Source: Okamejei kenojei (Eukaryota). Taken from it: a stretch of DNA of 64,000 nt. The position numbers and the translations under genes were made by a program. Location of the stretch: the NCBI GenBank assembly GCA_035221665.1, contig CM069153.1, positions 30,070,001-30,134,000 on the forward strand, written 5' to 3'. Below, piece by piece: positions 53-25,000 of this stretch. Numbering within the stretch: position 1 is the stretch's first letter; every line of letters starts with the position of its first letter. Under the pieces are notes generated by a model. It saw only the letters and a list, made by a program, of their open reading frames with translations. It did not search any database and was not told the DNA's origin.

Positions 53-861
53 CAAGTAAACATTGGAGGACCCAGTGTAGGTGAGCCACCAAGAGAACAA
101 AGGGGGGCCATTTGGGGACTAAATGGGATACTTTGTAACTTTGTTGGTGCCCTATATGTGGCGACTCTTGTGTATGCAAAACAAATAAACTCACTGTGAC
201 ATGTCACATGCGATAATAAAGTATCACTCATTCATTCACCCATTCAACTACTATTGAATATTTTCCTGCACTCCATTCTAAACTATATGGTTTCTGATCC
301 CTGACATCATCCACAACTGTTGGATCCAGCTCCTCCCAATTTTTATTACTCCATCAGATCTCTGCACTCCTTGTGGCTCTTAGATTAATGCTGGCTCCGT
401 CCACATTGCTTTCACAGTCAGATAATTCTCTATACTGGGTAGGTATGTTGCACGTCCAATTTGTAGAGTTATGGCAATTATAGTTTTGTTGAAAGCGTTG
501 GAAATAAGGGGACATATTGTCATTTGACAGGCTCAAGGGCTTGGTGAAGAAAACCCCAAAGACCTGGCCGAGACATTGTTCCTTTTTTTTGGCACCACAG
601 CAGCACTGCTGGAGATGTTTCATGTTAGGAAAAAAATGAGAGTTGCACTGTGGAACCCATTTCCCAAATGCTACAAGGTCACCCAAAAGTGTGTGCCAGC
701 CTGCGCTTCTGCAGGCGAACCTGCTATTCCAGGGGAGAGTTCTGCTCTTGCGGAGTTGGTTGAATGAGCTAATAGCGCGTGTTTATCATCATCCCATTCG
801 ATCGAGAATTTAGAATGGAGTTTTTGACCCTTAATCTACTTATCACCGCGGAAATACCAAC

Positions 862-1051
862 CATCGTCCAGGGTTCTCTCAAGAATGGGCGGGAAGCTGG
901 GCATTCCATCTCCAATCCTGGTGAAAGCAAGCACTTGGATCTTGTACAGCACGTACTTCCCGAGGTCAACAAGTTGGACAGCATGGGTGGTGTTGCCTTC
1001 AATGGCCCTGAACTTCGTAGACGTTTCCAGGTCTTTCTCCTTGTAAAGGAC
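862..1051 (-). CDS. SDK2: SDK2 exon, 190 bp, FNIII-7
   Basis: [63 protein letters not shown], translated by hand; donor G|GTTGGT. Confidence 0.92.
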
Positions 1052-4000
1052 CTATGTTCAAACAGAGAACAATGCACGGACAGGATGAGAGGAATTCCAA
1101 CAAAAAGTAATGTTTCACGTTCATCTTTCGCTAAAGTGAATAGCAGCATCTGCCATTTTATTGTTGCTTGTTGGTGTGCGGCATGGTGGCGCAGCAGTAG
1201 ACTTGCTGCCTTACAGCGCTAGAGACCCGGGTTCGATCCTGACTACGGGCGCTGTCTGTACGTTCTCCCCGTGACAGCGTGGGTTTTCTCCGGGATCTCC
1301 GGTTTCCTCCCATATTCCAAAGATATACAGGTTTGTAGGTTAATTGGTATAACTGTAAATTGTCCCTAGTGTGTGTAGGATAGGGGACTTGTGCAGGGAA
1401 CGCTGGTCGGCATGGACTTAGTGGGCCGAATGGACTGTTTCCATGCTGTATCTCTATACTAAACTAAACAAAAACAGTATTTTTATCTCTCCGTTGAGAA
1501 GATGATGAAGGGGTTTTCAGATTTGAAATTGGCTTCACTGTGTTAACAGTTTAGTATCGCTGTAAATAGGTGAAAATGTTTTGGCCATTGAACTAATGTC
1601 ACGTAAAAAAGATGAAAGGAAATAATGGTAGATATTTGTACATAACATCAGGAACAAAACACATGGGGTTATAGAGTCATTGACCCTTGGGCCAATGTGT
1701 TCCATTGAAGCTAATCCCATGATCAGGCTCATGTGAACTAATTGAGTTTAAAACAAAATTTGTCCATGTCCAGATCTCAGAAGAGCGCATTTCTTTAACT
1801 CTGGTTTGTGGTCTCTCCACGTAAGATTGCTGACCTCTGGAATCACACCCATGTGGTGAAGACAATTTACTCTGTTCCCCAAGATTTTTGGAGGCAGGAT
1901 GTAATCACGTTTACACACCCTGGATGGAACCACTGAGTTAAAAACAACCTTGCGATGCCAAACCACATCACCCCAAAATAGTCAAAGAGAGATACAGCAC
2001 AGAAACAGGCCCTTTGGCCCAGCGTCCACACTGATCATCTGTCACTCATTCACACTAATCCTACACTAATCACATTCTTTCCTATCCCCACATTCTTATC
2101 AACTCCCTCAGAATTCACCACCAACGTACACACTGGGACAGTTAACCTATGAACCCAGAGGTGTTTGGGATTTTTTGAGGAAACCCACAGAAACTCACAG
2201 GAAGAACATGCAAACTCCACCTGGACAGCATCTGCGGTCACAAATGAATTCTGGCCTCTGGCACTGTCAGGCAGCGGCTCTGCAGCTGTGCCACTGTGCT
2301 GCCCTAAATGGTTGGTACTATCCAGGGCTCAGACTTCCCTGTGTCTGGGAAAGCAGCATAAAGCACCCCAAGGAGCTGATCACCCACTGCGGGGCTGTGC
2401 ATGAGACTGGCAGCTGGCATGGGCCGACTTTTAGTCCCATGTACAGGGTTTATTCTCTGGTTGTTCTGGAGTCTGGAGGAGCAAGCGTACTCCACGCTGC
2501 TCATAAACTGTGGGCTGGAACATCTCTCTTCCTTCCCTTTTTAACTGCACAGATGTGAACTCCCTCTCCCGACTGGCAGCAGAGCCTGGAATTGGATGCA
2601 GCAGTCACACCCTCTGCTCCAAGGGGCAAATCTGGCAATGGCCACTTGCCAAGGTTAAACAGAGAAGTGTGTATGAAGGAACCTCAGATGTGGGTTTTGT
2701 ACCGATGATAGACACAGACTGCTGGAGTCATTCAGTGGGTCAGGCAGAATCTCTGGAGAAAAAATAGGTGATGTTTGGGATCGGAACTTTTCTACAGACT
2801 GAAGAATCTGAAGAAGGGTCATGACCCAAAATGTCAGCTATTCTTTTTCTCAAGAGATGCTGCCTGACCCACTGAGTTATTCCAGCACTTTGTGTCTATA
2901 AACAGATGAGAATTCATTTGGTTGACACAAAATGCTGGAGTAACTCAACGGGACAGGCAGCATCTCTGGAGAGAAGGAATGGGTGATGTTTGGGTCTCGA
3001 CCCGAAACATCACCCATTGCTTCTCTCCAGAGATGCTGCCTGTCCCGCTGAGTTACTCCAGCATTTTGTGTCTACCTTCGATTTAATCCAGCATCTGCAG
3101 TTCTTTCTTACACATGAGAAGTGATTTGGACAGGTACAGGGGATATGGAGCAAACCCAGGCATATGGGATTAACACAGATGGGGCATCTTGATTGGCATG
3201 GATGAGGTGTGCTGAATGGCCTGTTTCCGAGCTGTATGACTCCATGATTATGATTAACATTGATATCAGCTTGCCTTGTAGCCTAGGACGAGTCCATTGC
3301 GATTCTGTTTGGGGACCTCATTCCACTTGACCAGGATGCTGTTCGAGTTAAGAGCAAGGGAAGAGACATTTGTTGGACCTGAGGAAGGAACTAAAAATAC
3401 AAAGAAAGGAATTATCCAGGGAACAAATTATTCCACAGCCACAAGAAGAATTTCAAAAAAAATTCAACAATTCTCAAAGCACTGACAGGACCTATAAAAA
3501 TATCACCAGCTAAACCCACAGTAATGTCCGAAGAAGGGTTTCATCTTGAAACGTCACCCATTCCTTCTCTCCAGAGATGCTGCCTGCCCTGCTGAGTTAT
3601 TACAGCATTTTGTGTCTATCTTCAGTTTAAACCAGCATCTGCAGCTCCTTCCCACACGTACTGTACTAAACTCTGGCAACCAAATGCCACAACCAAAGGT
3701 GCCTGGAACACATTGCCAGGGGTGGAGGTCGAGGCAGATGTGAGAGGTGTTTAAGAGACTTTCAGATAGACGCACAGATATGCAGGGAATGGAGGGATAT
3801 GGATCGAGTGCAGGCAGAGGAGATTAGTGTAACTTGGCATCAAGTTCGGCGTGGACAATGTGGGCCGAAGGGCCTGTTCCCGTGCTCTACTGTGCTATGT
3901 TCTATGTTCACTGATTCTACTCCATTAGGTCTCCAGTTATTAATTGGGCTTTTTAGAGAATTAACTTGTTCAGAAGTAAAGATTCTAGTTCTGAATATAT

Positions 4001-7000
4001 ATTTTGCTGATGTATGCGTCTTCTCTTATTCTGCTGACCCAGTAACATGCTGCCTCGTCTCCTGTTTACTTTATGTACATCAGTCATTCCAGCCCAACCT
4101 CCTCTCTCCTATTAAACAGTCGCACACGCTCACAAGGTCATGCGGTAAATACTGGAAGCGTCTGGATATAATGGTGAATTCTGCTCATATTCCCTGTGGC
4201 ATAGCCGACCTTCTTCGTGCAATCCTCTCCTGTTACCCAACAGGGTTATTGGAGAATTGCATTCTGCAGAGATTAAATATTTAAAAGGAATAAAATAGCA
4301 CTTTGGTGCCACAAGTCAATAATAATGTTACTACTTGTGCCGATCCACTGCAAGTCCTGATGGTTTTCACCCCGACTCATTTCCACAGCTTTTACCATCC
4401 ATTGCTAGTCTTGTTGTAGACAGGGGTGTCCGATTCTGATTGATATAAACTCTTGACTCTCAGTCTGAAGAAGGGTCTCGACCCGAAACGTCACCTGTTC
4501 CTTTGCCCCAGAGATGCTGCCTGACCCGCTGCGTTACTCCAGATTTTTGTGTCTATCTTCACTGAGTTGGAATGGCCTGGCTGTGCAGGTATTACCCAGG
4601 GAATGGTCCTCTGGGACAATTTGGTCTACGCTCTTCTGCCATGCGGCAGAAGCAACTGTAAACGCATTGGATTATGAAGGGAACTCAAACTGAACTGCTG
4701 GAGTGATTTAAAATGACCCTGAGAATGTTGTTGCCATGTTTTACTGCCGATTATTGATTTTCAATCTTGCTGAAGACAGTGAGGTGGAGATGAAAATAAC
4801 AGCATCAAGCAAGACGATGGACAAAGAGCAGGGAGTGAGATCAACCTGAATCTCAACGTTCAGCACCAGCGGTCAGCATCAAGGGTGCCAAAGTGGAGAT
4901 AGTTGAGATCTTTCCATTCCTAGGTGTGAATCTCACCAACAGTTTGTCCTGGGGCAACCGCATTGATGTTTCAACCAAGTATGCGCACTAACACCTCTAC
5001 TTCTCAGGAGGTTAAGGAAGGAAGCCATGTCTCCAATAATTCATACCAACTTCTACAGATGCACCGCAGGTAGCATCCTAACAGTTGGTTTGAGAACAGC
5101 TCTGCCCAAGTCAGCAAGAAATCACAGAGAGTTGTGCATGCAGCTGAGTCCATCACACAGACCAGTCACCCCACCACTGACTCCATCTACACTTCCCGCT
5201 GCCTTGGGGAAGCAGCCAACATAATCAAGCACCACTCACACCCCGGTCATTCCCTCTTCTGCCCTCTCCTGTCGAGCAGAATATACAAAAGTTTGAAAGC
5301 ACGTACCACCAAATTCAGGATCAGCTCCTTCCCCCTTATGAGACCACTGAATGTCCTCCCATAAGGCAAGGATGTAGTCTCAATCTTCCAACCTACCTTA
5401 TGGTACCTTGCACGTTTTAATCTGAATTTTCTCTGTAACTCTGATGCTCCAATGCTGTAACACTACATTCAGCATAATTTGAATGAATTAAGAGTTGCAG
5501 TATTGGAGACAGCAGAATGCCACCACTACCAGAGAACTCACAATCTTCCCCGTTGTCAATGGTCCTCCCTAAATTATGGTGTGGTCCTGATCTTCTAAGC
5601 AGCCTTCATTGCCGACGATTAATTTTTTATCTGTAACTGTAACACTAGAACGCTGTAACACTATATCCCACACTCTGGTATTTTCTCTTTGCACTACCTG
5701 TCGTACTTGTATTTAGTTTGGTTGTACTCATGTATATTATGATTTGTTGGGATCGCACACAAACAAAGCTTCTCACTGCATCTCGGTATTATTAACAATT
5801 ATAAAACCAATACCAATAACCAATGGGCGGCACGGTGGCGCAGGGGTAGAGTTGCCACCTTGCAGCGCCAGAGACCCGTTTTGATCCTGACTGCAGATGA
5901 TGCTGTCCGTACAGAGTTTGTACGGACCTGCATGGGTTTACATCGCACTCCAAAGATGTACAGGTTTGTAGGTTAATTGGCTTTGATAAAATTGTAAAAA
6001 AATGATTCTCAGTGTATGTCGGATAGTGTTAGTGTGCGGTAGAGAACACGGGACGGTGCGGACACGGTGGGCCGAAGGGCCGGTTTCTGCGATGTATCTC
6101 ATAACTAAACTAAATACCAATACCAAGTATCTCTTTATCAGATGAGATGAATAATCGTTTTCTTTATCATTATTTTTTATGCTTCCATAATATTCATTCT
6201 GTGTGAACATTGAGACCACTGTAACATGCACGCTGCTTGAGCTGGAGATCTATCCCGGTGCCCTTACACTCCACATCGCTCGGCTGGTTGGTGGTTTAAA
6301 CAACACAAATTTCTGCAAAACCTTGATCGTGTTATTCACATTCACTTGCAAAACATTGTCAACCAAGTTTAACAGAAATTGGGTTTCAGCAATTATGAGT
6401 AACTCCATACTAATATATAATCTATATTATCTGAAGCTCTGAAACAGAAGCAAACATGATGCCTGCAACAAATACTGTAAAGATGCCATTAGCATCCTAA
6501 TGAAGGATATTCGACATTGCAGTAATCATTAAAAATTTAACACCCTGTATCAACTATCAAATCTTATAAGCACATCAACAAAACTACTTGTGTTATTACT
6601 TTGTCAAGATAAGAGGGCACCTCATTGCATTCAGCTTTATCTGTGTCTGTAGTGAACTTCAAAAAGAGGGAATGTTGCCGTTAGTTCAATAATCGATAAA
6701 CATTACCATTTATCGATCAAAGGCCAAACAGCCTCCAGAGTTCAGATGAGGAAAACCTGAGGATTACTTCCTGGCCACGATCCCGCTCAAACAGTGGCGC
6801 CTGTGGCCACTGCAATTGTCAAACGCCCCAGATGAGACCCGGAATCTCTGAGTTAATTGGTCCCTTTAAAGAAAGTTAGTTGCACTGGGAGCAAAGTCCT
6901 CTTGGCTGTTGCTCACTCATCGACCACACAGTCATTTCAGTTTTGGCTGACGACCAATAGCACTGAACAAATTTAATTAACCGTTCATCATTGTCCTGAT

Positions 7001-10000
7001 TAGCAATCAGCTTTCATGGGAAAAGGAATAGAGAGAGAGCAACAGGATGTTACAATTCTTCAGGGCTCAATCCAACTGATACATTGCAAAAAAAGACAAA
7101 GTGCTGGAGTAACTCAGCAGGTCAGGCAGCAGCTCTGGAGAACTTGGGGCGGCACAGTGGTGCAGCGGGTAGTGTTGCTGCCTCACAGTGCCTCATAGTT
7201 CAACCCGGACTATGGTACACCTCAATAAGCTCACCCCAGAAGTCAAAACAATTATGGTCAAAACCAAGGTGGGGAAGCAGATCACATTTCATAATTTTTC
7301 ACCATGTATTCTGCATACATTATGTGGCAATAATTAAAATAATCTGAAACCATACTATATTTAGGTAAAAACTTGAGTTGTTTTTTTACTGTCCTTTAGT
7401 CCATGTCTGGATCATCTTCATGGATATTAATAAGTTTTGCAGCGACACTATGAAAAGTAATGGCTTGAAAAGATGATGAGCTATGATCAGGTTTGTTCCC
7501 TGCACAGTTATAGTCTGGTTTCAGGGAGAGCAGATATCCCAGGACGTCGTCTGGCGACTTTTACTGAGGTGCTAGTGAGTGAATGTTCAAAGGACATCTG
7601 ACCATGGAGGACGTTACTCTTACTATTCAACCAACGAAAGCATGCATGTACTTGTAGAAAGAATCATGGTACACCCGTGGCACAGCTGGTAGAGCCACTG
7701 CCGCACAGTGTCAGAGACCCAGGTTCAATCCTGACCTCGGGTGCTGTTTGTGTGGAGTTTGCATGTTCTCCCAGTGACCGTGCAGGTTTCCTCCAGGTAC
7801 TCCGGTTTCCCCCCCATATCCCAATGACATACAGGTTTGTAGGTTCATTTGCCCTCTGTAAATTGATCCTGATGTCTAGGGAATGAATGAGAAAGTGGGA
7901 TAACATAGGACTAGTGTGAACGGGTGATCGATGGTCGGCCTGGGTTCGGTGGGCTGAAGGGCCTGTTTCCATTGCTGGATCTCCAATCTCTGCACCCACC
8001 AGGATAGGAAACCAATGCGAACACTCCCTTCTTCTAGCTAGGGGCTGACCAGAGACACTGCTCGGATGCTCCTTCTCCATGAGACTCACAGTAGGAGATT
8101 CACTCGAAGTTACCATATTCAAGACACAATATTTTGACACGATAATTTGTTTACCCCTGACTCCATCAGAATTTGGTAGAAGATCGAAACACATGGGTAA
8201 TAGTACCAATTTAACAGAAACTAGGAGGCCTAACAGGCTACTTAACGAGAGTCATATTTAATTTAAACGTTACTTCCAGCTATAATTCAATGGAATTCAA
8301 TGATTGCTGCTCATTAAAGCCATCTGTAATTCAACACTTAGGAACTCCACATTATAAGCCATTTCTTCATGTCTTTTCTTAGAATATGCAATCACAGCTA
8401 ACGTCTACAAGCATTACCAGATCAGCCATTAGGAAATTAAATTCACAATGACTCTGTCATTGCCATCATTCTATGTATGAGCTTTAAAGAAATAGCTCCA
8501 GGTTTAGATTAGCTGCTGATTATATTTTAACCTCCGTCTTTAATTTTTTTATACCTTCAATCGAAAATATTTGTTGTTACATCATCATAATCAAATAATT
8601 AGCAGATGGATGTAGCATCGTGTCGGGAATGATAAAATAATTCCGGGATTAAATGTGCTGGTCTGTTGCCAAATTGTAATGCGATTGCTCGATAAGCTGA
8701 TGGTGAGCTCATCTGAAACTAAACTACCCAAATACCAACTCTTGTCGAGTCTCAATCACCTGTAATCTCTGTGCTTGATGACTCTGACATTCCCCGACTT
8801 GTTCTCAAACCACTCACCCACATCTGTGACCTCCTCCCACCATCAGACCCTCCTCCAGCCCTGGCCGATATTGCTGTACTTGCCATCAGCTACCAAAGTC
8901 CCACACTGTTGAGATCCATTCCTCAACATCTCTTCTTTTAAATAGGTGACGTTTCTAGTTGAGACCTTTCTTCTCAACCTGAAACGGCACCTATCCACGT
9001 CCTCCAGCATTGCTGCCTGACCCACTGTGTTGCTCCAGCACGTTGTGTCTTTCCTTGGAAAACCAGCATCGACAGTTCCTTGCTACTACTCTCTCTTCCT
9101 TCAAAGGTGATTCTAGCATTAGATTTGTGGATGCTGTGTCTATAGTAGAACATGATGCAATAGCAAATTATTGACACAACATCTGTCTATAACAGAAGAA
9201 ATGTGTAGGGTCTTGAACCAAAATGTCACCCATCCCTTCTCTCCAGAGATGCTGCTTGACCCGCTGAGTTACTCCAGCAGTTTGTGTCTTTTTTTCTCCC
9301 TATAGCACAGTAGAATGTCTACTCTGAAGGGAGACACTCAGTAAGAGTTTTAGTTCAGTTTAGTTTATTGTCACGTGTACCAAGGTACAGTGAAAAGTTT
9401 TTGTTGCGTGCTAACCCCCCAGACAATGGAAAGACCATGTGTTTAAGAAGGAACTGCAGATGCTGGAAAATTGAAGGTAGACAAAAGTGCTGGAGAAACT
9501 CAGCGGGTGCAGCAGCATCTATGGAGCGAAGGAAATAGGTAACGTTTCAGGCCGAAACCCTTCTTCAGACTCCTTCTTCAGAGTCTGAAAAAGGGTTTCG
9601 GCCTGAAACGTTGCCCATTTCCTTTGCTCCATAGATGCTGCTGCACCCGCTGAGTTTCTCCAGCACTTTTGTCTACCTACAGTGGAAAGACTATACTTGA
9701 TTACAATCAAGCCTTCCACAGTGTACAAATACATGATGAAGGGATAACATTAAGTGCAAGGTAAATTCCAGTAAAATCCAAGGGTCTCCATTGAGGTAGA
9801 GAATAGCTCAGGACTGGTCTCTCGTTGTTGAGCTGCTTCTGCAATGAGCTGATACCACAGGTTCTGTGGTTGGGTTTAATTCGTAATGACTGATTTGTTA
9901 GTTTCAATTAAGAATGCAACTTGCATGCTCAGTCTTGTTCTCAGAGTAATTCCAAAACAAAGCGTCAATTTACATTGAAGTACAATGGGATTGCTAGAAA

Positions 10001-13000
10001 TGTAGAAACAAAATATTTAGGCAATTGTAGTGAATGGCAGTGAGAACGTGGAACTGGGTGCAGCGATGCCAGTGCTCACTCCGCTGTTTCCCAGTGAAAG
10101 CTCAGTCAGTCACCATTGCTGCAATTACTTGTTTACTTTGGTTTAGAGATACAGCGCAGAAACCGGCCCTTAGGCCCACCAGGTCCGCACAGACCAGCGA
10201 TCCCTGCATGCTAACACTATCCTACACATACTAGGGACAATTCACAATTACACCAAGCCAATTGACCTACAAACCTGTACGTCTTTGGAGTGTGCGTGGA
10301 AACCGTAGATCACAGAGAAAACCCACGCAGGTCACGGGGAGAACGTGCAAGTTTCATAAAGACAAGCACCCGTAGTCAAGATCGAACCCGGGTCTCTGGC
10401 GCTGTAAGGCAGCAACTCTACCGCTGTGTCACCGTGCCGCCTGTCTTTTCTTGCCTGCCTGGGCAGCCCCTCAGCCAGCGAACCCAGTGCCGAGAGCAAG
10501 GCCTTCAGGCACGGAACCAACACACCAATCTCCAGTTATTCCATTAATATACCTCCCTCTGCTGTTTCGAATTTGTGACCCATCAACTTCTAATTTAGTA
10601 AACTAATAACTAAAAAGTATAAAAACAATAAAATATTAGTCAGAGTCATACAGCGTAGAAACGGGCCCTTCGGCTCAACTTGTCCATGACGACCAACATG
10701 CCCCATCTACACTAGTCCCAACTGCCCATAACCCTCTAATAACCTGTCCTATCTGTGTACCTGTCCAATAATCTCGTAAATGTTATGACAACATCTGCCT
10801 CAACTACCTCCTCTGGCAGCTCATTCCATTTTCCCATCATCCTATGTATAAAAAAGCTACCTCTCAGGTTCCTATTAAATCTTCCCTCCCTCATCTTAAA
10901 TTAAAAATAGAAATTCTAAAAAGTTGAATATCGAGTGTTTAACTTTGCAGAGTTGCCGGTATGCTGTACTCGTGAGTACTGCCACAATAAAAATCACTGA
11001 TTCTGTCACTGTGTTATTATATATGGTATATTAATCACTTCCTTTCACATCATTGCTTCCAGCTGCTTTGTTTTATTGTGGCAGGCGTGTTTCTAATTGT
11101 GTTTAAACAACGCCACAAATAAAAAAGCAGTTTTGTACTTAAATTGGAAGTCGTACGGACTTGACTGGTTCCATAAGTGATAGGACCAGAATTAGGCCAT
11201 TCCGCGCATCAAGTCTATGTCCGTCATTCAATCATGGTTGATCTATCTCTCCCTCCCTCCTAACCCCATTTTCCTGCCTTCTCCCCACAACCTCTGACAC
11301 CCGGTTTGTGGAGTTCAGACAGCAGGACTGGGGCTGCCTCTCCCACAGCACCACTGCAGACATTCAGCTACGGTTACAGAGGGGCCTCTTTCCTGCAACG
11401 CCAGCTGGCTGGAGAAACTAGCCGGGAGGAGTTACCAGGCGGAAAATGACCTGGCGACTGAACCGGTAACTGAACTGGTAACCGACAACCAGTTAGTGAC
11501 AACCAGTTACCGACCCCCCAGCAACGGGTCTGGAATGACAGAGTTTCTATCAGAATCCATGCAGATCAGATGCTGCAGAAAGCACAAGACCAATCTACAA
11601 CAACCTCAGTTATATGACCTTGCATGACCTTCAGCTGCAAGGCTTCAGGGAATGGGAGCACATTTACCACAGACCACATCGAGAGCAAGAACTCTGACCC
11701 CAGGGTGAATTGCCAGATTTCAGATGGCGCAGATTATCGAACAGATACTCCCGTCCTGGGTACAATCTCCAGTTTATCAGCCCAGACTTCTTTGTGATGT
11801 TGGTGGGGGGAGGGGGGAGGGGGTGAGATTTCAGTGATCAGGCAAAAAGATACAAAGGCACATTGATTCAAACTTCAAACCACCAATGACGTTCCAAATT
11901 ACCAACAATGATAATGTTAACTTTAAAGATTATTAACAAACATAATAAACTTCGCAAACCGTAAAATATTCATTAAATGTTTACAAAGTTGATGTAAAAA
12001 AAGTAAAATTTCCAACTTTAAATTTTCCTCTGAAGCTGCTTAGTAAATAATTCCTCTTCCCTGCTGAGCTCATTTCTGCCATCTGGTGGGGCAGTTGAGA
12101 AGTGCTAGTTGCATGCAGATCCTTTACTTCATACTTTTACACATCAGAGATACAGCGCGGAAACAGCCCCGACAGCCCACTGAGTTCGTGTTGACCAGCG
12201 ATCACCCCGTACTCTAGCTCTAACCTACACACTAGGGAGAATTTACAATTTTACCAAAACCACTTAACCTACAAACCTGTACGTGCTTGGAGTGTGGGAG
12301 GAAACCGGAGCACCCGGAGGAAAAACAATCGTGGTCTCTAGGACAACGTGCAAACTCCATACAGACAGCACCCATAGTCAGGACCGGAGCCAGGTCTCTG
12401 GTGCTGGAAGGCAGCGGCTGCACCACTGTGGCATCTTGCCGCCCTCAGGAAAGATTCCTGTAGTTTAAGTCAAGTCGAGTTTATTGTCACATGCACAAGC
12501 ATGGTGAGGTACAATCTTGGTTTCTAACCAACAAGGATCCTTATTGGAGCCATGTTCAAAATTTGGACACGCTCGAACGTTTTTCCAATCACCGAAAGTA
12601 CGCAAATGCCGGTGGAATGAAATGAAAACTGCGAATACTAAAGACAGGCATCAGGTCCGGCAGTGGGACGAAAAACGAGGGGCATGTTTTATCTCAGTGA
12701 CCTTTCATTAGGGCTGCTGAAAGTTAGAGATCTAACAAAATTTGGAGAGGGTCCAGAGGTAGTTTACAAAAAATATGCCAGGGATGATTGGGTTAAGGGG
12801 CGGCACAGTGGCGCAGCAGTAGACTTGCTTCCCCACAGCGCCAGAGACCCGGGTTGGATCCTGACTATGGGTGTTGTCTGTACGGAGTTTGTACATTCTC
12901 CCTGTGACCGCGTGGGTTTTTGTATGGGTGCTCCGGTTTCCTCCCACATTCCAAAGATGTACAGGTTTGGAGGTTAATTGGTAGTGATAATATTTGTAAA

Positions 13001-16000
13001 TTGTCCCAAATATGTAGGATAGTGCAAGTGTACAGGGTCAGCACGAACTCGGTGCGTCTAACATCTTGTTTCCATGCTGCATCTCTAAAGTAAAGTACGA
13101 GGAACGTTTCACGGCACTGGGCCTGTACTCACTGGAGTTTAGAAAGATGAGGAGAATCTCATTGAAATCTACTGAATAGTGAAAGGCCAGGATAGAGTGG
13201 ATGTGGAGAGCATGTTTCCACCAGTGGGAGAGTCTAGGACCAGAGGGCACGGCCTCAGAATAAGAGGACGTACCTTTAGAAAGGAGATGAGGAGGAATTT
13301 CTTTAGCTAGAGAGTGGTGAATATGTGGAACTCATTGCCACAGACGGTGGTTGTGCCGAAGTGGAAATGGTCGAGAACTTCAAGTTCCTGGGTGTAAATA
13401 TCACAAACAGTTTGTCTTGGACCAACTACATTCATGCCTCAGCCAAGCTTTTCACTATATATCGGTACACATGACTACAAACTAAACTAAACTAAGGTAA
13501 AGTAAACTAAATTGCACCAACGCATCTACTTCCTCAGGGGACCAAGGAATGTTGGCAAGTCTCCAACAACTCTCTCCAACATCAATGGGTGCATTGTAGA
13601 ACTCATAATATCAGGATGCATCGATGCATCACAGGGAGACGACAAAATGCTAGAGTAACTCAGCGGGTCCGGCAGCATCTCAGGATAACCTTGGTATTTT
13701 GAAGCTAGGCATTGGCAAATCCTTGATTTGCAAGGGTATCAAGAATTATGGCAGGAGAATGGAGAAGATAGATCAGCCATGATTGAATGGTGGAATAGGC
13801 TTAATGGACTGAATGGCCTAATTCTTCTCGAATCTCTTTGCACGGGAGACCCGACTTTTACCCTGTCGGGTCTCCGTTGTCGTTGGGGCCTAGCACCGTG
13901 GAGCGGCCTCCGACCGGGACGACCTGGGGGCTCCAGTCACGGAGCCTGTGGAGCTGCGGACTACTTACTATCGTGGGGCGGGCCGGCCTTGGAGCGTGGG
14001 GAGCGGTGGTGGCTCGCTGCTGCGGCCCGACTCCGGAGCTCCAGCTCCAGCTGCAAATTACTGTCGGTGGACATCGGGAGCTCGCGGCTCCGGATGAAAG
14101 ACTGTTTCCCGGAGCTCCGCAACACAACTTCTCCCCCCGTGTCGAGGGATTGGAACGACCCGGAGCGGGGCCGTACATTGCCCGGCGCAGCTTTAAATGG
14201 CCGCGGGACATTCCAGCGCCCGCCGGGGGCTCCAACTTTGTGACTTTTGGGCCTAGAGCGGGGCCGTACATCGCCCGGCGCGGCCTCAATGGACATGGGA
14301 CTTAACATCGCCCGCCTGGGGCTTCGACATCGGGAGAGAAATGGTGCGGGGGAGAGAGAGGAACTTTGCCTTCCATCACAGTGAGGAGGAGATTCACTGT
14401 GATGGATGTTTGTGTGAATTGAATTGTTTGTGTGTTTTTTTATGAATTGTTCTGTTTATATGTCTTATAGAAACGGAGTTTTGTTTGAGCCTCTCTGAGG
14501 TTTGAATGACAAGTAATAAAATCTAATCTCCAGTCTAATCTAATCTTCTGCTCCTTTGCCTTATGAGACCATGGATAAGTGAGGTTTCCGGTTGTGACTC
14601 TTCCTCATTGTGGCAGTGGGGGGGGGGGGGGGGGGGGGGAGAGGGGGGAATGCTGGAAGAGAGGTGGGGGGGGGGGGGAGGGGCAGGGACTTAGCATTTA
14701 GTTTCAACTCAGGTGAACTTCATGAAAGTAAATTGTCTGAAAAAATAGTTTTTTTTTTTGGCAAAAGAATCAGTACTTTATCATGAAACACAGATCTTGT
14801 TCAAAATTAGATGAGTTTCTCCACAATGCACATGACAATTTTATGTACATGCACTCTATCTTTTAAATCATGTCGGTAAGTTATGTGTTAAAACCTTGGC
14901 CACCGTTTGAATGTCAGAAGACCCGTGGAGAGGAAACAGTGTCCATGGAAAGTATTGTCAGTTGCTCATTGTGACTTGTCCAGGATGTTCCCATATGGGG
15001 AGATACACAATACGTGAGAACATAAAGGTCACTTGGCTCCTCGAGCTTTCTCTGCCTTTTGTGGCTGGTCTGACCGTAACCTCGTTCCACATTCCTATCC
15101 CCTCACCGATCATCCTGTCAGTGTCCACGATCTACCTCTGCCTTAAGAATATTCAAAGACTCAAATCCACTGCCCTTGGAGGGAAAGATTTCTGATGACT
15201 CATGACCTTCTGACAAGAAATGTCTAATTTCCCTCTTAAATTTGTGACCTTCTATTTTTAGTGGTGACCTCTCGCTCCGAATGTTCCCCCAAGAGGGAAA
15301 TATCCTCTTCACGTCTCGCCAGTTAAGACCCCTTTGAATCTGACACATTTCAAACAAGTTACCTCACGGTCTTCTAAACACCAGTAGATATAAACCCGAT
15401 GTATCCCAGGTATGAGCCAAGCATCCAGCAAATGAGTTTATAATTTAAGTTATAATCACAGCAGAGGCAGCCACGTGGCAACACAACAAGACACAGAACT
15501 GAGGTCTGAAGCAATTAAAAGAAAGTAGGTGTCTAGGCCTTTAGTTTAATTTCAAATTATTTAAATCAATGTAATTACTTCATTTTTATATTCAGTTAAT
15601 TACTGTTAAAAAAAAAAGTTATTGTGATTAGTTTAACTTCAAATTAGTTAAATCAACGTATTTACTTCATTTTTACATACAGTTAATATATTGTTTGGTT
15701 TTGGTTTATTTTAAGTATTTAATTGTAATTAATTTCTACACATTTATTTTGGAATCGGATGATTTCACTTTGGTGGCCATGTAGTCTGTGTAAAATAATG
15801 CAAAACCACAAGGCTGTAGTTGCTGGAAATTGTCAACCACCTCCTATGCCACCAGAACCATCTACCACGTTGTTTCCGGTGAGTCATAGTTGGCCACAAA
15901 ATTAACAAGCCACAGGCTATGACCCTGAATTCTAAACAAAGAAACATAGAAAATAGGTGCACGAGTCGGCCTTTCAGCCCCTTGGGCCAGCACCGCCATT

Positions 16001-19000
16001 CAACATGATCATGGCTGATCATCCAAAATAAGTAGCCCGTTCCTGTTTTCTCTCCATAGCCCTTGATTCCGTTAGCCCTGAGAGCTATATCTAACTCTCC
16101 CTTGAAAACATCCAGTGAATTGGCCTCCACTGCCTTCTGTGGCGGAGAATTCCACAAATTCACAACTCTCTGGATGAAAAAGTTTTTCCTCATCTCAGTC
16201 CTAAATGGCCTATCCCTTATTCTTAAACTGTAACCCCTGGTTCTGGACTCCTCCAACACCAGGAACATTTTTCCTGCATCTAGCCAGTCCAATCCCTTAA
16301 GAATTTTATGATTCTTTAAGATCCTCTCTCATCCTTCCAATTTCCAGTGAATATGTCCAGTCGATCCATTCTTACATCATATGATATAAACATATGGACA
16401 TAAATATTTCAACATATGGACATATATACCCTCAGCAAGGGTAAGCATCAATTCCACTGCTCTCCAGAAGCCCCTTAAGAATTCTGCATATTTCAATGAG
16501 AACACATCTTCTAAACTCTCAAGTGTAAGGTTCCATCAGTCGTCGAAGGATGACACTGCCATCCCTGACATCTGCTTCTGCTGCCAGTGATCCAGACATC
16601 ACCAGCTCAAGGAGGAGAACGCAATAAAGCAGGCAACACTGGACTCTGGTGTGAAATGGTTGAACAAGCTCAGGTTCATCAGTTCTGTGCTTTAACCCCT
16701 GGGCTATGGGACCAGAAACTGTTGTGCAAAATGGCCCCATCTTTGAGCATGGACTGCTCTGGTCTACACAACGGTGCAGAAAACTCCAGGCTGTATGACT
16801 TCAATCAATGCTTTTGTTGTGACGGTACACACTGGTACAGAGTACTAGCACTTGTCAAAGGTTAAAAACTAGACCTTCAGATCGAGAACCAGTGACATAG
16901 GTTTAAAGTTAGGAGGGGAAAGATTTAATGGGAACCTGAGGGGTGACGTTTTTACACAAAGGGTGGTGGGTGTATGAAACAAGCTGTTGTAGGTGGACTA
17001 TCACAATATTTAAGAAACGTTTAGGACAGGTTTAGAGGGATATGGGCCAAATGCAAGCAGTTGGGACTGGTGTAGATGGGACATGTTGGACAATGTGGGC
17101 AAGTTGGGTTCTTGTGACTCTTCAATTTTTTAGAATAGTTGATTTTATACCTTTTAGTCATGAGTCATGTACTGAAACCAGAACAAAATTCTTACTTGCA
17201 GCAGCATAACAGGTCTGTCAACACTGTCTTCATAAATAACATAATAAACAAAAAGTTTAATATATTTACAATGCCCTCCAAAAATAACTCATATTGGTGC
17301 CCCTTTATTACTTATTAAATTAGAAGTTGATCGGTCACAAAATCAATACCATTGAAGGGGGTATTGAACAAATAAAATTGTTGATAAATGTAGCTTAATT
17401 TTTAATTGATGTGCATACTGGCAATTTTTTTTCCACAACAATAGCACTGACTTTAATGCCGTGGGAACTGAGATGAGGCCTATTGTTGTTCGTTAGCGTG
17501 TAAGCAACCTTAAAAACAAAACGCAAAGTGATGGAGTAACTCAGCGGGCCAGGCAGCATCTCTGAAGGACATGGATGGGCGACGTTTCAGGTCGGGACCC
17601 TTCTTCAGACTCGGAACTTCTCTTGACTTTGAAGAAGGGTCCTGACCCGAAACATCACCAGTCCGTGTTCTCCAGACATGCTGCTTGACCCGCTGAGTTA
17701 CTCCAGAACTTTGTGTTTTTGCTTGTAAACCAGCGCCTGCAGGTCCTTGTGTCTCTCTTGTAAAGAAACTCACCGGATTCTCTGGTGCGACCATTGACCT
17801 GTGGACTCCAGGGTCCTGAGCCGATGGCGTTGAACGCTTGCACCTGCACTCTGTACTCAGTCCACTCCTCCAGATCCTCGATGGTGAAATCCCGCTCAAT
17901 ACGATCGTGGATGATGTGGGTCAGAGTTGACCCATTCCCCTCTGACTTCCCATAGTTTATTTTGTATCCCACTGATTCCTGATTCCCATTGTACTCCGAT
18001 TCAGGCAAAGGCTGAGGAAAGAAATGTAGCAATTTCTTTATCAGTTCAATTTTAGAAGTTTTAACTGTTTTTTGTGTAAACGCCTAACTTATCCAAATAA
18101 AACTAACTGATCTTCATCACAGGCATTCAAGTGAATGAACTATAGTCTCTGATTCAATGCCCTCAGAAATAATTATAGTAAAAGTTTAATCTGCTATCAT
18201 CCTTCACCATCATTTTCCCACCATAATAAAAATAATCTGCTATAAATTTCTGCAATAAAGATCAAAAATTGAGTAAATTTAAAGGCATAAAATGTACATT
18301 ATCACATTAGATTAATTGTCGCTGAGAGTGATTATTTCCAGCTAATTATACTTGGTTTTGTACCCATTCCCATTCAGATAATAGACGGGAGAATCTTCGC
18401 TGGGTGTACACCAGCTAATCATGTTGATTAAATTAATGTTCTGTGGAATGCTATAATCTTCCTGCCGGCTTACAAATACAGGGATCAGAAAATTAACTTT
18501 GCAGGGAAGCCTCAAAATTGAAGATTTTAAACCTTCCTGACCAATGGTGATTGGAAGATTCATTAATTCACAAGAAAGTGACTGTTACCCTGGTGAAGAC
18601 ACATGACAGGTGATTTGGCCACAGTTACTTTACTGATGCTCCGATGATAGTTTGCGTTTTGAGTGGTGAAACCATTCTGTGGCATACACAGTGACATTAA
18701 CATACACCGTGAGGAGTAGCGGCCCCAGCACCGACCCCTGCGGAACACCGCTGGTCACTGGCAGCCAACCAAAAAAGCTCCATTTATTGCCACTCTTTGC
18801 CTTCTGCCATTCAGCCAACCGGCTATCCACGCTAATATCTTCCCAATGATACCATGGGCTCTCATCTTCTTTAGCAGTCTCACCTTATCGAAGGCTTTCT
18901 GAAAATCCAAGTAAACAACATCCACTGACTCTCCTTTGCCTATCCTGCTATTTACTTCCTCAACGAATGCCAACAGGTTCGTCAGACAAGATTTCCTTTT

Positions 19001-22000
19001 TATAAAACCATGTTGAACCTCGGCCTATTTCATCATGTACTTAGAAACCTCATCCCTTATAATGGACTTTAAAATCTTACAACCACTGAAGTCAGCGCAC
19101 CGGCCTATAGTTTCCACTCTTCTGCTCCCTTCTTGAACAGTGGAGTAAGATTTGCACTTTTCCAATTGTCTGGAACCACTCCTGACTCTAGTGATTCTTG
19201 AAGGATCAACACTAATGCCTCCACAATCTCTAAGGCCCTGGGGTGCAATCCAGCTGATAAGGTGACTTATCCACCTTCAGACCTTTCAGCTTCCCAAGCA
19301 TCTTCTCCTTTGAAATAGCCAATCCACTGACTTCCATCCATTGAATCTCTTGAATTTCAGGCATGTTGTTGGTGTCTTCCACTATCCACTGTGAAGACTG
19401 ATGCAAAAAACGTATTCAGTCCATCAGCCATTTCTTTATTTCCTACTATTACATCTCCAGCATCATTTTCCAGTGGTCCAATGTCCACTCTGGCCTCTTC
19501 CTTACTCTTTATATATCTGAAGAAACTTTTGCTCTCCTCTTGTATATTATGGCCTTACTTACTTTCATATTTCATAGTATATATCTGATCTGATTGGTGA
19601 GAATGCAAAGCACATGGTACATGTGACACTAATAAAACTAAACTTAAAAATGAAGCTCTCAATGACCACCAAGCGGGGCACCAGTAGAAAGCCCAGTGGA
19701 AGGTTCTCCGACTCAGTTTGGATGGAGAAGGGAGGGAGAGGTAGTGGGTGGGGCAAGGAGCTGCACTCGGAGACAAAGGTTTCATGTCATACTGCAATAC
19801 AAGTGTTTCAGAAGCACTTAAACAAGCTAGAAAACAAGTGATATTGGTTACTCCTGAGACGAGAGCCCTGGTCTGTTACATACCACCCAACGGAGCCAGA
19901 GACTTGTCTCACTTGCAGTGCGCAGGGTCACATTGGCAGGAGCCATGTCAGGCGGGGCCTGCAACGTTTGAATTTTGCGTGATAGCTGGCTCGGCAAGCT
20001 CGTCCCCACGATGTTGACCTGGCGCATGCGGAACCTGCAGAGACACAGAGCGGGCACTGCGATACAAGACAATCCACAATCCCCGAGTGGGCACTGAGCT
20101 ACTGGACATTCCATGCCACCCTCACGGGCACTGAATGACAGGACATTCCACATGTGAATGGTACCTGTAATGTGTGAGTGATACCCGTAATGAGGAGTGG
20201 TACCTGTAATGTGTGAGTGACACCTGTAATGGGCGAATAATATCTGTAATGGGTGAATGGTACCTGTATTGGGCGAATGGTACCTGTAATGCGTAAATGA
20301 TTGTAATGGGTGAACCGTACCTGTAATGGGTGAACCGTACCTGTAATGGGTGAATGGTACCTGTAATGGATGAATGGTACGTAATGAGTGAATGGTATCT
20401 GTAATGGGTGAAGTCCCTGTTAAGAGTGAACTGTACCTGTAATGAGTGAAATGTACAGTGGCTTGCAAAAGTATTCATACCCCTTGAACTTTTCCACGTT
20501 TTGTCGCGTTAAAACCACAAACGTAAATGTATTTTATTGGGATTTTATGTGATAGACCAACACAAAGTGGCGCATAATTGTGAAGTGGAAGGAAAATGAT
20601 ACATTGTTTTCAAATTTTTTTACAAATAAAAAACTGAAAAGTGTGGCGTGCTAAAGTATTCAGCCCGCTTTACTCTGATACCGCTAACTAAAATCCAGTG
20701 CAACCAATTGCCTTCAGAAGTCACCTAATTAGTAAATAGAGTCAACTTGTGTGTAATCTAATCTCAGTATAAATACAGCTGTTCTGTGAAGGCCTCAGAG
20801 GTTTGTTAGAGAACATTAGTGAACAAACAATGTTCCTTGGGCATCATGAAGCCCAAGGAACACACCAGACAGGTCAGGGATAAAGTTGTGGAGAAGTTTA
20901 AAGCAGGGATAGGTTATAAAAAAATATCCCAAGCTTTGAACATCTCACGGAGCACTGTTCAATCCATCATCCGAAAATGGAAAGAGTATGGCACAACTGC
21001 AAACCTACCAAGACATGGCCGTCCACCTAAACTGACAGGCCGGGCAAGGAGAGCATTGATCAGAGAAGCAGCCATGAGGCCCATGGTAACTCTGGGGAAG
21101 CTGCAGAGATCCACAGCTCAGGTGGGAGAATCTGTCCACAGGACAACTATTTGTCATGCACTCCACAAATCGGGCCTTTATGGAAGAGTGGCAAGAAGAA
21201 AGCCATTGTTGAAACAAAGCCATAAGAAGTCTTGTTTGCAGTTTGCCCCAGCCATGTGGGGGACACAGCAAACATGTGGAGGAAGGTGCTCTGGTCTGAT
21301 GAGACCAACATTGAAGTTTTTGACCTAAATGCAAAACGCTATGTGTGGCAGAAAACTAACACTGAACATCACCCTTAACACACCATCCCCACTGTGTAAC
21401 ATGGTGGTGGCAGCATCATGCTGTGGGGATGCTTTTCTTCAGCAGGGACAGGGAAACTGGTCAGAGTTCTTGGGAAGATGGATGGGGCCAAATACTGGGC
21501 AATCTTGAAAGAAAACCTGTTAGAGTCTGCAAAAGACTTGAGACTGGGGCAGAGGTTCACCTTCCAGCAGGACACCGACCCTAAACATTCAGCCAGAGCT
21601 GCAATGGAATGGTTTAGATCAAAGTATATTCATGTGTTAGAATGGCCCAGTCAAAGTCCAGACCTAAATCCAATTGAGAATCTCTGGCAAGACTTGAACA
21701 TTGCTGTTCACAGACGCTCTCCATCCAATCTGACTGAGCTTGAGCTATTTTGCAAAGAACAATGGACAAAAATGTCAGTCTCTAGATGTGCAAAGCTGGT
21801 AGAGACATACCCCAAAAGACTTGCAGCTGTAATTGCAGCGAAAGGTGGTTCTACTAAGTATTGACTCAGGGGGGCTGAATACTTTTGCACGCCACACTTT
21901 TCAGTTTTTTATTTGTAATAAAATTTGGAAACCATGTATCATTTTCCTTCCACTTCACAATTATGCACCACTTTGTGTTGGTATATCACATAAAATCCCA

Positions 22001-25000
22001 ATAAAATACATTTACGTTTGTGGTTGTAACGTGACAAAATTTGGAAAAGTTCAAGGGGTATGAATACTTTTGCAAGCCACTGTACCTATAATGAGTGAAT
22101 GATACCTGTAATGGGTGAATGGTACATGTCATGGATGAATGGTACCTGTAATGATGAATGGTACTTGTAATGAGTGAATGATACCTGTAATGGGTGAATG
22201 GTACCTGTAATGGATGAATGGTACCTGTAATGATGAATGGTACTTGTAATGAGTGAATGATACCTGTAATGGGTGAATGGTACCTGTAATGGATGAATGG
22301 TACCTGTAATGATAAATGGTACTTGTAATGAGCGAATAATACCTGTAATGGGTACCCGTAATGGATGAATGGTACCTGTAATGATGAATGGTACTTGTAA
22401 TGAGGGAATGGTACCTGTAATGGGCGAACAGTGCCTGTAATGAGTGAACTGTACCTGTAATGGGTGAAAGGGTTGAGGTTGGGGACCTCCAGGGAGCGTG
22501 CATCAGGCTCGTTGACCAGCTGATGAACCAGGTGCCATTCCTCATGCTCCCCAATTACACCGACCTGAGGAAGGAAAGCAGAGGTCAGCCCAGGGGCGCT
22601 GCGCAACCAGCCAGTATTCTGCTTGGCTTCATCCTCTGGAGGAAGCATGGAATGGCTGCAGTCCACGTTGGTATTAATTAAAAAAAACCTCAAAAGGATC
22701 AAGGAGATTGAAAATACTCTTAAAATATTATTACTCAGTTAATCACAGTCAAAGATAGACCCAAAATGCTGGAGTAACTCAGCGGGTCAGGCAGCATCTC
22801 TGGAGAGAAGGAATGGGTGACATTTCAGATGGGTATGATCCAAAACATCACCTGTTCCTTTCCTCCAGCGATGCTGCCTGACCCGCTGAGTTACTCCAGC
22901 ATTTTGGATCTATCTTCGGTATAAGACAGCTTCTGCAGTTCCTTCCTAAACATAATCACTTACAGCAATTCAATTTCTTCTAACGGAAAAATTAAACCAA
23001 TTATAATTAAACAATGGGCAGCAAGATTAAAACAGCTAAGATATTTTGTTCAGTTACATTGTACAATATTCTTTCCAGTTCTTTTCAGAATATTAGCCAA
23101 ATCAGAATCAATTAGTGAACTACATCAAACTCCGTGTTGCATTTGCTCAAGTGTTCACAATTGTCTTTGTTACAGTAATGGCTTCATTACTACTTGCATT
23201 TCAGAAACTTTTTCATAAAGAAAAATTGCGCTCTATGGTGGCAAAATTAGCATAATGCCAAAGCCAAGCCTTATACATTTATGATAATGAGGAGAGGTAG
23301 AGGGAAACAGTTTTGGAGACACAAGTAAGTGCAGACGCTGGAATTTTAAGTGCTGGGAGTAACACAGCAGGTCAGGCAGCATCTGTGGAGGGAATGTACA
23401 GGCAACGTTTCAGGTTGGGACTCTTCTTCAGACTTCAGTTGTTAAGAATGGATTTAAAGAGGGTGTTGGAGAGAGGATGAGGTTCGAGGAGGAGATTGAG
23501 AATCTGGGCAGCTGATGACAGTGTCACCATTGGTTACATTGGAAAAGAGACACGAGACAACGGACGTAAATGGAGAGACTCAGGGAGATGGTTGGATGTT
23601 GGGTGAGAGATGTTCAGTGCCAGCAGCAAGATTTTGAAAATGTTTGGCCCAGAAGTCACAAGTCATCATGAATTAAAGCATTGATGAGAGGGATGGTGTG
23701 AAATAGAATATGATGAAGAGTATTTGAAGAGCAGTATTAAAATGACATAGTAGTGCAGTGGTAGACCCGCTGCATCACAGTGCTAGAGACCCTGGTTCGA
23801 TCCTAACCTCAGGTGCTGTCTGTGTGGAGTTTGAACGTCCTCCCTGCGACCGCGTGGGTTTCCCCCGGGTGCTTTGGTTTTCCCCCACATCCCAAAGTTG
23901 TGGGGGTTTGTGGGTTAATTGGCCTCTGCAAATTGCCCATGATGTGTAGGGAGTGAATGAGAAAGATGAATGATGGTCAGCATGGACTCGATGGGCTGAA
24001 GGGCCCGTTTCCCAGCCGCTTCTCTACTACTAAAAAAATTAATGTAAAGTGAGAAAGACATGAAGATGTAATTCAGTTGGCCTAAGATGAAGGCTCCGGC
24101 AGTGGTTGTGATGGAGATTAAAGCAGACAGATGTGGCAAATAAGAAGAGACAATGTCTACCATTCAATCATAGATTCTCAACCACGTCGCTGAAGGAACA
24201 GCTCCTCATGTATCGCTTGGGCAGCTTACAACCCAGCAATATGAATATTGATTTCTCTAACCAAGTAACCCTTGCTTTTCATCTCTCTCCATCCCTCCCC
24301 GCCTTAGTTCTCTGACTAGTTACCCTGTCCTCCTGATTAAATATTACTGATTGTTTGCCGTGTTTTCACCTTCCCCTCAGCTAACAATGAACCATTCTAC
24401 GTTTCCTTTAGCATTATCTGCTTTAATCCGTCATTTTCACACCTTGCCCTTCCATATCTCTAGACTTCCCCTCCCCTGACTCTCAGTCTGAAGAAGGATC
24501 TCGACCCGAAATGTCACCGATTCCTTCTCTCCAGAGATGCTGCCCGTCCTGTTGAGTTACTCCAGCATTTTGTGTCTATCTTCGGTGTAAACCAACAGCT
24601 GCTGTTTCTTCCCACACAAGTCCCTGAAAACGATGGTTTCATTGGTTACCATCATAATTCTGAGTAAGAAGTCATCACTGCCACTTCCTTTACACACAGC
24701 AGGGTAAATGCAGACTTTTGATAAAAATGTAAAATGCAATGAATCGGTATCTTAAAATAAATATTAATTGGATTATTCCTGGGTTCCGTGACAAAGTGGT
24801 TACCGCCGTCCTTTGTCTCTCAAATCTACATGGAAAAAGCAAATTCAATTACCTACTGGAATTGAAAGCTGGCATTCACAGTTAAGGTAGCAAAGATCAC
24901 ATATATTTAGCTCCAGAATTACTTTTCAAGCTCAATTTACAGTCAATGTATCGCCTAGGCAATGGATTTTAATATTAGTTAAAAGCAACTGGTATCATTA

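Follow-up and report, generated by a model that had tools for sequence, protein, structure and literature searches.

The DNA analysed here (the window) is a stretch of 64,000 nucleotides of the skate Okamejei kenojei (assembly GCA_035221665.1, contig CM069153.1, positions 30,070,001 to 30,134,000 of the forward strand). As the original prediction had proposed, its minus strand carries a sidekick gene; for two exons, SDK2 was the best match of equal length in the PDB. Further sidekick exons were found out to C23:30,024,032 and 30,269,362, so that the gene extends over ~245 kb. Short-period tandem repeats at 20154-20456 and 22082-22471 lie directly after two Fn3 exons and extend their open frames. 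The introns contain many copies of a short repeat in both orientations, one of which harbours the putative ribozyme motif at 4463-4494 (Table 1).

Table 1. Coordinates of the sidekick gene, the repeat family and the hammerhead motif within the window.
Feature	Position	Strand	Content or basis
Host gene sidekick (SDK2 best match)	839..63999	-	Ig and Fn3 exons
Sidekick exons (examples)	63880-63999, 60781-60981, 43811-43972, 839-1051	-	All repeat copies lie between these exons
Span of the 49 family matches	2669..62968	both	14 head-to-head pairs, 21 solo copies
Minimal type I hammerhead (putative)	4463..4494	+	Read from the sequence; consensus in PMC4209133
Tail-less PLE 3'-end stub around the motif	4454..4560	+	~10 nt of 3' UTR, ribozyme motif, conserved body to the first 3' boundary
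Head-to-head pair	9441..9684	both	Minus arm 9545-9568 intact, sense to SDK2, with tail; predicted long hairpin
Head-to-head pair	17513..17753	both	Minus arm 17585-17608 intact, sense to SDK2; tail on plus arm; predicted long hairpin
5'-truncated PLE copy	24190..24617 (start approximate)	+	Endonuclease C-terminus, 3' UTR, damaged hammerhead at 24488, tail
5'-truncated Neptune-type PLE	35668..37150 (upstream end approximate)	-	tblastn and translation

The motif reads GU-CUGAAGA-A-GGGU CUCG ACCC-GAAA-CGUC/AC, where the slash marks the predicted cut, and it is oriented antisense to the SDK2 transcript. Its helix I is formed by 4463-4464 and 4493-4494, CUGAAGA (4465-4471) is followed by an extra unpaired A (4472), helix II (4473-4484) is closed by G4473-C4484, corresponding to G10.1-C11.1, and GAAA (4485-4488) leads into the palindrome ACGU (4488-4491) without a loop 3. 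C17 is C4492, directly after which the cut is predicted, and the NUH cleavage triplet as well as the CUGANGA and GAAA core are present at 4465-4492. For the minimal hammerheads of Penelope-like elements (PLEs) the consensus NNN CUGANGAH G..C GAAAN palindrome NUH NNN was described (Cervera and De la Pena, 2014; PMC4209133). It is based on 56 motifs from 40 species, and chondrichthyans are absent from the alignment in Fig. S3 of that work. The core letters, the extra base at 9/10.1, the G10.1-C11.1 pair and the 15.2-16.2 palindrome all conform to it, so that the hammerhead-like core predicted at 4461..4496 fits the published consensus letter for letter and the loop-less palindromic helix III is of the Penelope type shown in Fig. 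S3. Helix I had been given as 2-3 bp, of which two hold; A and C are mismatched at the third position, and 0 of the 27 window copies that span the motif match the complete descriptor with a 3-bp helix I. Helix I of PLE minimal hammerheads is published with 2-5 bp, and with 2 bp in helix I and 4 bp in helix II the motif lies at the short end of the published cases. Judged by its sequence, the repeat carries the known minimal type I hammerhead motif of the Penelope kind. A pattern with the core at fixed spacing occurs 9 times in the window, where 0.25 are expected and 0 of 100 shuffles reach 9; seven of the nine matches lie inside the repeat.

A profile search with a short model of the repeat gave 48 matches in the window and none when the window was reversed, and a model including the flanks gave 49 (23 on the plus and 26 on the minus strand). 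All nine further copies named in the original prediction exist, and the repeat is, as stated there, the most abundant short repeat with more than 20 copies. In a self-comparison of the window it forms the deepest family, with a depth up to 41 compared with up to 18 for a SINE-like family. The latter is ~290 nt long and has 31 window matches, such as 1180-1468, 23756-24012 and 60231-60525. The motif is spanned by 27 of the 49 copies. All core letters are kept in 7 of these, in agreement with the predicted core mutations in many copies, and the core together with helix II, helix III and a 2-bp helix I is kept in three, at 4465 (+), 9545-9568 (-) and 17585-17608 (-); most motif copies in the window are broken. 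Among 187 full-length copies from the window and the genomic loci much of the damage lies at CpG sites, with G12 altered in 23%, G16.2 in 26% and a downstream CpG in 14-19%. In the 2.76-Gb genome an exact 30-mer occurs 39,727 times and a degenerate descriptor of the intact motif 82,065 times, and both reversed controls gave 0. The motif class has been known since 2014 and the repeat family is a further case of it. A literature search returned no paper on this family in cartilaginous fishes; Repbase and Dfam, which were outside its coverage, may hold the family, and the supplements of a 2026 preprint that includes one chondrichthyan may cover it (bioRxiv 10.64898/2026.07.22.740005).

The repeat represents the 3' terminal (pseudo-LTR) 100-135 nt of an abundant PLE, whose assignment to the Neptune type is based on motifs and not on a tree. 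The copy at 35668-37150 contains a broken reverse transcriptase (RT) with YIDD, a zinc-finger linker, a GIY-YIG remnant within the open frame 36001-36630, and a 3' UTR, followed by the hammerhead at 35770-35797 with G12 changed and by the tail at 35668-35702. When the window was searched with an RT/GIY-YIG frame taken from another genomic locus, this region alone gave a match (tblastn E 4e-17), and the decayed 209-aa window frame alone gave no Pfam match. A genome search with the window frame yielded 150 scored matches from 107,850 candidates, of which 12 loci with long frames were picked. In all 12 the repeat lies downstream of the RT-endonuclease (EN) frame on the same strand, mostly ~240 nt past it, and in nine the motif is intact as judged by eye. 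The location of such a hammerhead at a PLE 3' end is borne out by these loci and by the RT/GIY-YIG remnants upstream of the repeat in the window. The frames of L122, L124 and L125 match RVT_1 (3/3, E 4e-6 to 5e-7) and GIY-YIG (E 0.0015-0.0044, below the Pfam cut-off). A CX4CxxC linker and CCHH residues can be read by eye in the translations, and a CX2-5CxxC linker together with CCHH was reported to mark the Neptune/Nematis type (Craig et al., 2021; PMC8557442). The longest frame among the 12 loci has 705 aa, and a full-length frame between two direct pLTRs was present in none of them. L123 has a 570-nt direct repeat downstream, and L123 and L126 have ORF copies with inverted 500-nt ends.

Loci from a genome search with the Pfam GIY-YIG domain were rejected as the parent, as they belong to a different and younger PLE family and carry the repeat at only 3 of 30 loci, as a bystander. 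This second family forms ~6.3-kb head-to-tail units, exemplified by L061:1111-1176, 1292-5302 and 7459-9452 (G000:C43:11500-21400), with related loci L031-L060. Each unit has a ~600-aa upstream frame with a weak GDSL-like match (E 0.12), which is split in the first unit, and then a 759-aa RT and GIY-YIG frame. Upstream of the first frame lies a hammerhead with an 8-bp helix I and a 5-bp helix III, which could fold as a monomer (predicted -16.6 vs -19.3 kcal/mol for the MFE). Several arrays are located within 40 kb of contig starts (C11, C14, C17, C43, C111) and telomere-like hexamers abound at some of the loci. The literature search gave no obvious match for a two-frame, endonuclease-bearing PLE in end-of-chromosome arrays.

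Helix II of the motif has a predicted probability of 0.9 in the bare segment 4461-4496 and of 0.33-0.71 with flanks, and helix I of at most 0.05 in the monomer. A double-hammerhead fold is predicted at -6.1 kcal/mol vs -24.5 kcal/mol for the free dimer, and the monomer folds no better than its shuffles (z 1.28). Covariation was analysed in 42 of the 64 available tailed copies. Two-sided changes were found at 0 of 6 hammerhead pairs, which has little power in one young and mostly neutral family; the covariation score did not exceed that of shuffles and RNAalifold gave no consensus pair. For helix I, 98.8% of cells are paired and the variation is one-sided (U-A/U-G), and the helix II arms are paired in 86.5%, so that their predicted pairing holds for most cells but is not accompanied by any two-sided change. 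Between subfamily majorities, 1 of 11 core columns varies vs 16 of 58 downstream columns (p=0.27); the lower core variation is suggestive only, and an excess of core conservation over the flanking repeat is not significant. An apparent excess (5.6% vs 11.7% mismatch, p=1e-16) was discarded because differences between subfamilies remain in the downstream columns and similarity had been the criterion for choosing the loci. Decay at the CpG positions of the core resembles that at the other CpGs of the repeat. Since these within-family tests gave no significant support, it is the cross-phylum consensus and not conservation within the repeat family that carries the conservation argument.

An Rfam scan of the window with covariance models gave no hammerhead among 28 matches at E<=10. 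The matches, all below the gathering score, were hairpin-driven miRNA families on the inverted pairs and other weak ones, and were rejected. One could argue from the lack of covariation, the ordinary monomer fold and the Rfam scan that the core match is a coincidence in the sequence of one repeat, which was never a ribozyme. However, all 11 core letters, the extra base, the G10.1-C11.1 pair and the palindrome fit a consensus drawn from 40 species, and the motif sits at the place expected in a PLE, which makes a coincidence scarcely credible. In published systems activity is restricted: for the Schistosoma motif no monomer activity and low dimer/trimer activity were described (PMC4209133), and the hammerhead ribozyme (HHR) of an anole PLE was reported to cleave only with protein and to be dispensable for insertion (PMC11167929).

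The arrangement of the copies informs on how they were inserted. In the window 28 of the 49 matches form the 14 head-to-head pairs, where random placement gives 0.48 (maximum 4 in 2,000 trials), and a ~30-nt tail is found on one arm only in 14/14. A sample of 1.46 Mb, which was not chosen for the repeat, includes the window and was searched at two slightly different score thresholds, gave 713 matches with 154 inverted pairs, i.e., about one pair per 10 kb; the tail is on one arm in 124 pairs, on both in 3 and on neither in 27. Direct repeats of at least 8 nt surround 44 of the 154 pairs (shuffled control 3.1), so that a pair often represents one insertion. They also surround 24 of 129 short solo copies (control 2.3), and in 11 of these 24 they end 0-1 nt before U2.1. 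Two 3' boundaries, ~70 and ~100 nt beyond the cut site, result in tail-less and tailed ends. The 5' edge of the motif is reached by 343 of the 713 matches, and for 11 the start falls no more than two positions from the cut site, which is not above neighbouring positions. Among 129 anchored solo copies (defined separately from the 129 short-type solo copies), 70 share nothing further upstream, with G at -1 before U2.1 in 87% and similarity fading by -5, and 59 continue into the PLE 3' UTR, 17 of them for at least 290 nt. The first base pair of helix I thus marks the start of the inserted DNA, and because insertions start at this 5' edge and not at the cut site, the template was likely uncut RNA.

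Two further features of the repeat were observed. In 42 of 52 long copies the sequence ends in CAG directly before U2.1, after a pyrimidine tract and a CTGAC-like branch motif; such a 3'-splice-site-like tract precedes the ribozyme in several subfamilies, e.g., at 35803-35830 (-) and 24460-24487 (+). Eight nucleotides of the body can pair with the tail around a small hairpin (e.g., 24540-24605), forming a candidate RT-initiation structure; this 8-bp stem is paired in 93% of cells, with one two-sided change, no more than in shuffles.

Instead of an RNA start, the sharp start at helix I may reflect a copying artefact, caused by RT stop or fold-back at TCAG/CTGA palindromes and helix II, or by the upstream AG splice acceptor. 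Inversion within the first 24 model positions in 13 of the 14 window pairs would agree with it, as would the splice-like sequence before U2.1 in the long copies and the Penelope intron of D. virilis, which was described to end at helix I (PMC4209133). The short copies, however, share no upstream exon and their target duplications lie directly against the motif; of 47 joints in contigs of four RNA runs, the 15 listed include no GT..AG, and an RT stalled by the folded ribozyme would be expected to stop at its 3' side. An artefact is thus doubtful, though it deserves to be weighed. A spliced exon or host-exon chimera as the source of the sharp start was not supported on the same two grounds, the missing common upstream exon and the abutting duplications.

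The 100-135 nt unit might also be an independent non-autonomous element similar to a SINE or retrozyme, with transcription of its own and mobilisation in trans, and not a short product of the full-element RNA. The 70 anchored solo copies without common sequence upstream of the motif, the fixed ends and the target duplications point in this direction, and retrozymes, among them those of one chondrichthyan, have been described as derived from PLEs (bioRxiv 10.64898/2026.07.22.740005). Against this, the other 59 of the 129 copies extend into the PLE 3' UTR, the same body sequences are found at the ends of RT-EN frames, and head-to-tail arrays are lacking, with two same-strand neighbours within 300 nt among the 49 window matches, neither of them intact. 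We regard such an independent element as unlikely. Both this alternative and the copying artefact concern details and overlap with the main reading, a PLE 3' end that carries a hammerhead.

The original prediction had further suggested that sense-oriented copies in the SDK2 pre-mRNA could pair up and cleave introns. The copy at 4463-4494 is antisense, and 2 of the 16 motif-spanning sense copies in the window are intact, 8 kb apart. For both, folding predicts ~100-bp hairpins that would lock up the motif (-195 and -149 kcal/mol), and helix II has a probability of 0. Over the 245 kb of SDK2 the intact solo copies are 1 sense vs 9 antisense. A replicate covered 1 Mb of four other long genes in both orientations, namely the sidekick paralog, whose region ends were assumed to be intragenic, and three LDL-receptor-repeat genes, all of which may or may not be expressed; it gave 13 sense to 9 antisense intact unpaired copies (p=0.52) and 68:71 for all motif-bearing solo copies. 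The skew in SDK2 was a post-hoc lead, and its reading as selection against cleavage was rejected, as it failed this pre-set replicate and a control motif without catalytic role, taken from the same repeat, is skewed alike in SDK2 (1:8). The strand counts exclude a strong sense deficit but leave room for a mild one. All or part of the stretch is contained in 24 RNA runs as assembled contigs only, which do not carry ends, strand or level. As a separate observation, the inverted pairs (9441-9684, 17513-17753 and 12 others) would give 60-100-bp dsRNA in SDK2 introns on either strand and are likely RNA-editing substrates.

Cleavage of introns in pre-mRNAs such as SDK2, whether by pairing of sense copies or by activation in trans by the PLE protein, could draw on the 82,065 descriptor-intact motifs in the genome, the 1:9 ratio in SDK2 and the protein-assisted cleavage known for the anole PLE (PMC11167929). 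The equally skewed control motif, the balanced replicate and the predicted hairpins of both intact window sense copies speak against it, and we consider it very improbable; on the predicted structures and the strand counts, the motif likely does not cut the RNA of its host gene. In a related proposal, equally far from probable, the intact stubs would be latent protein-gated ribozymes, and expressed RT-GIY-YIG protein would bind ribozyme-tail RNA in host pre-mRNAs and trigger cleavage in trans. A transposon burst would then cut host introns genome-wide, fold-back pairs would be self-silenced copies, and such cleavage of host RNA, if shown, would be a previously unknown way for a retrotransposon to act on host transcripts.

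The preferred reading is that the repeat constitutes the 3' end of a Neptune-type PLE with a known minimal hammerhead that is likely relevant only in the RNA of active master elements, and that the dispersed copies are likely inert, decaying by-products (probability about 0.88). The element RNA would begin at or beside the first base of helix I, as suggested by the insertion ends alone. The RT-GIY-YIG protein would likely start reverse transcription at one of two internal sites, ~70 or ~100 nt past the cut site, producing the tail-less and tailed ends, and would copy uncleaved RNA back to the ribozyme edge, in many cases with a second, inverted copy added during the same event. Cleavage would take place in two copies paired via the ACGU palindrome, probably with the help of protein, and would be confined to master-element RNA; with this need for copy pairing and probably protein, host introns are predicted to stay uncut.

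This reading can be compared with known systems. The PLE minimal hammerheads of other species, as described in PMC4209133, share the CUGANGA-H core, the unpaired base before G10.1, the G10.1-C11.1 pair, GAAA-C-G-UC and the empty palindromic helix III, and likewise occur mostly solo or as opposite-strand pairs from truncated PLEs. The 82,065 intact motifs counted here compare with ~4,000 in coelacanth and ~9,000 in Xenopus, obtained with different descriptors (PMC4209133). The EN+ Neptune PLEs in the account of PMC8557442 have the same single frame of RT and C-terminal GIY-YIG with the CX2-5CxxC linker and CCHH, the same heavy 5' truncation, an adjacent inverted copy and a 30-40 bp tail at one end; unlike these, most copies in the skate retain no more than the final 100-135 nt, beginning at the ribozyme edge. 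Poseidon PAc of Anolis, which belongs to a different clade, has the same two 3' boundaries ~70-100 nt past the HHR cut site, and its insertions likewise do not start at the cut site, which fits an uncleaved template (Frangieh et al., 2024; PMC11167929). In that report the PAc tail was traced to two internal RT start sites, and unprocessed RNA was the main substrate, with no reads ending at the cut site. The ORF of PAc starts inside the HHR, whereas no such start was identified in the skate loci. Non-LTR retrozymes, as the preprint presents them, are likewise short, non-coding and PLE-related with a type I HHR; they form head-to-tail tandem arrays, whereas the skate copies occur singly or head-to-head and are connected with RT-EN frames (bioRxiv 10.64898/2026.07.22.740005).

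With ~82,000 intact motifs, 39,727 of them identical, the in vivo role of PLE hammerheads becomes testable by statistics. Two such statistics, the absence of a strong sense deficit in introns and the start of insertions at the ribozyme 5' edge, point away from cleavage.
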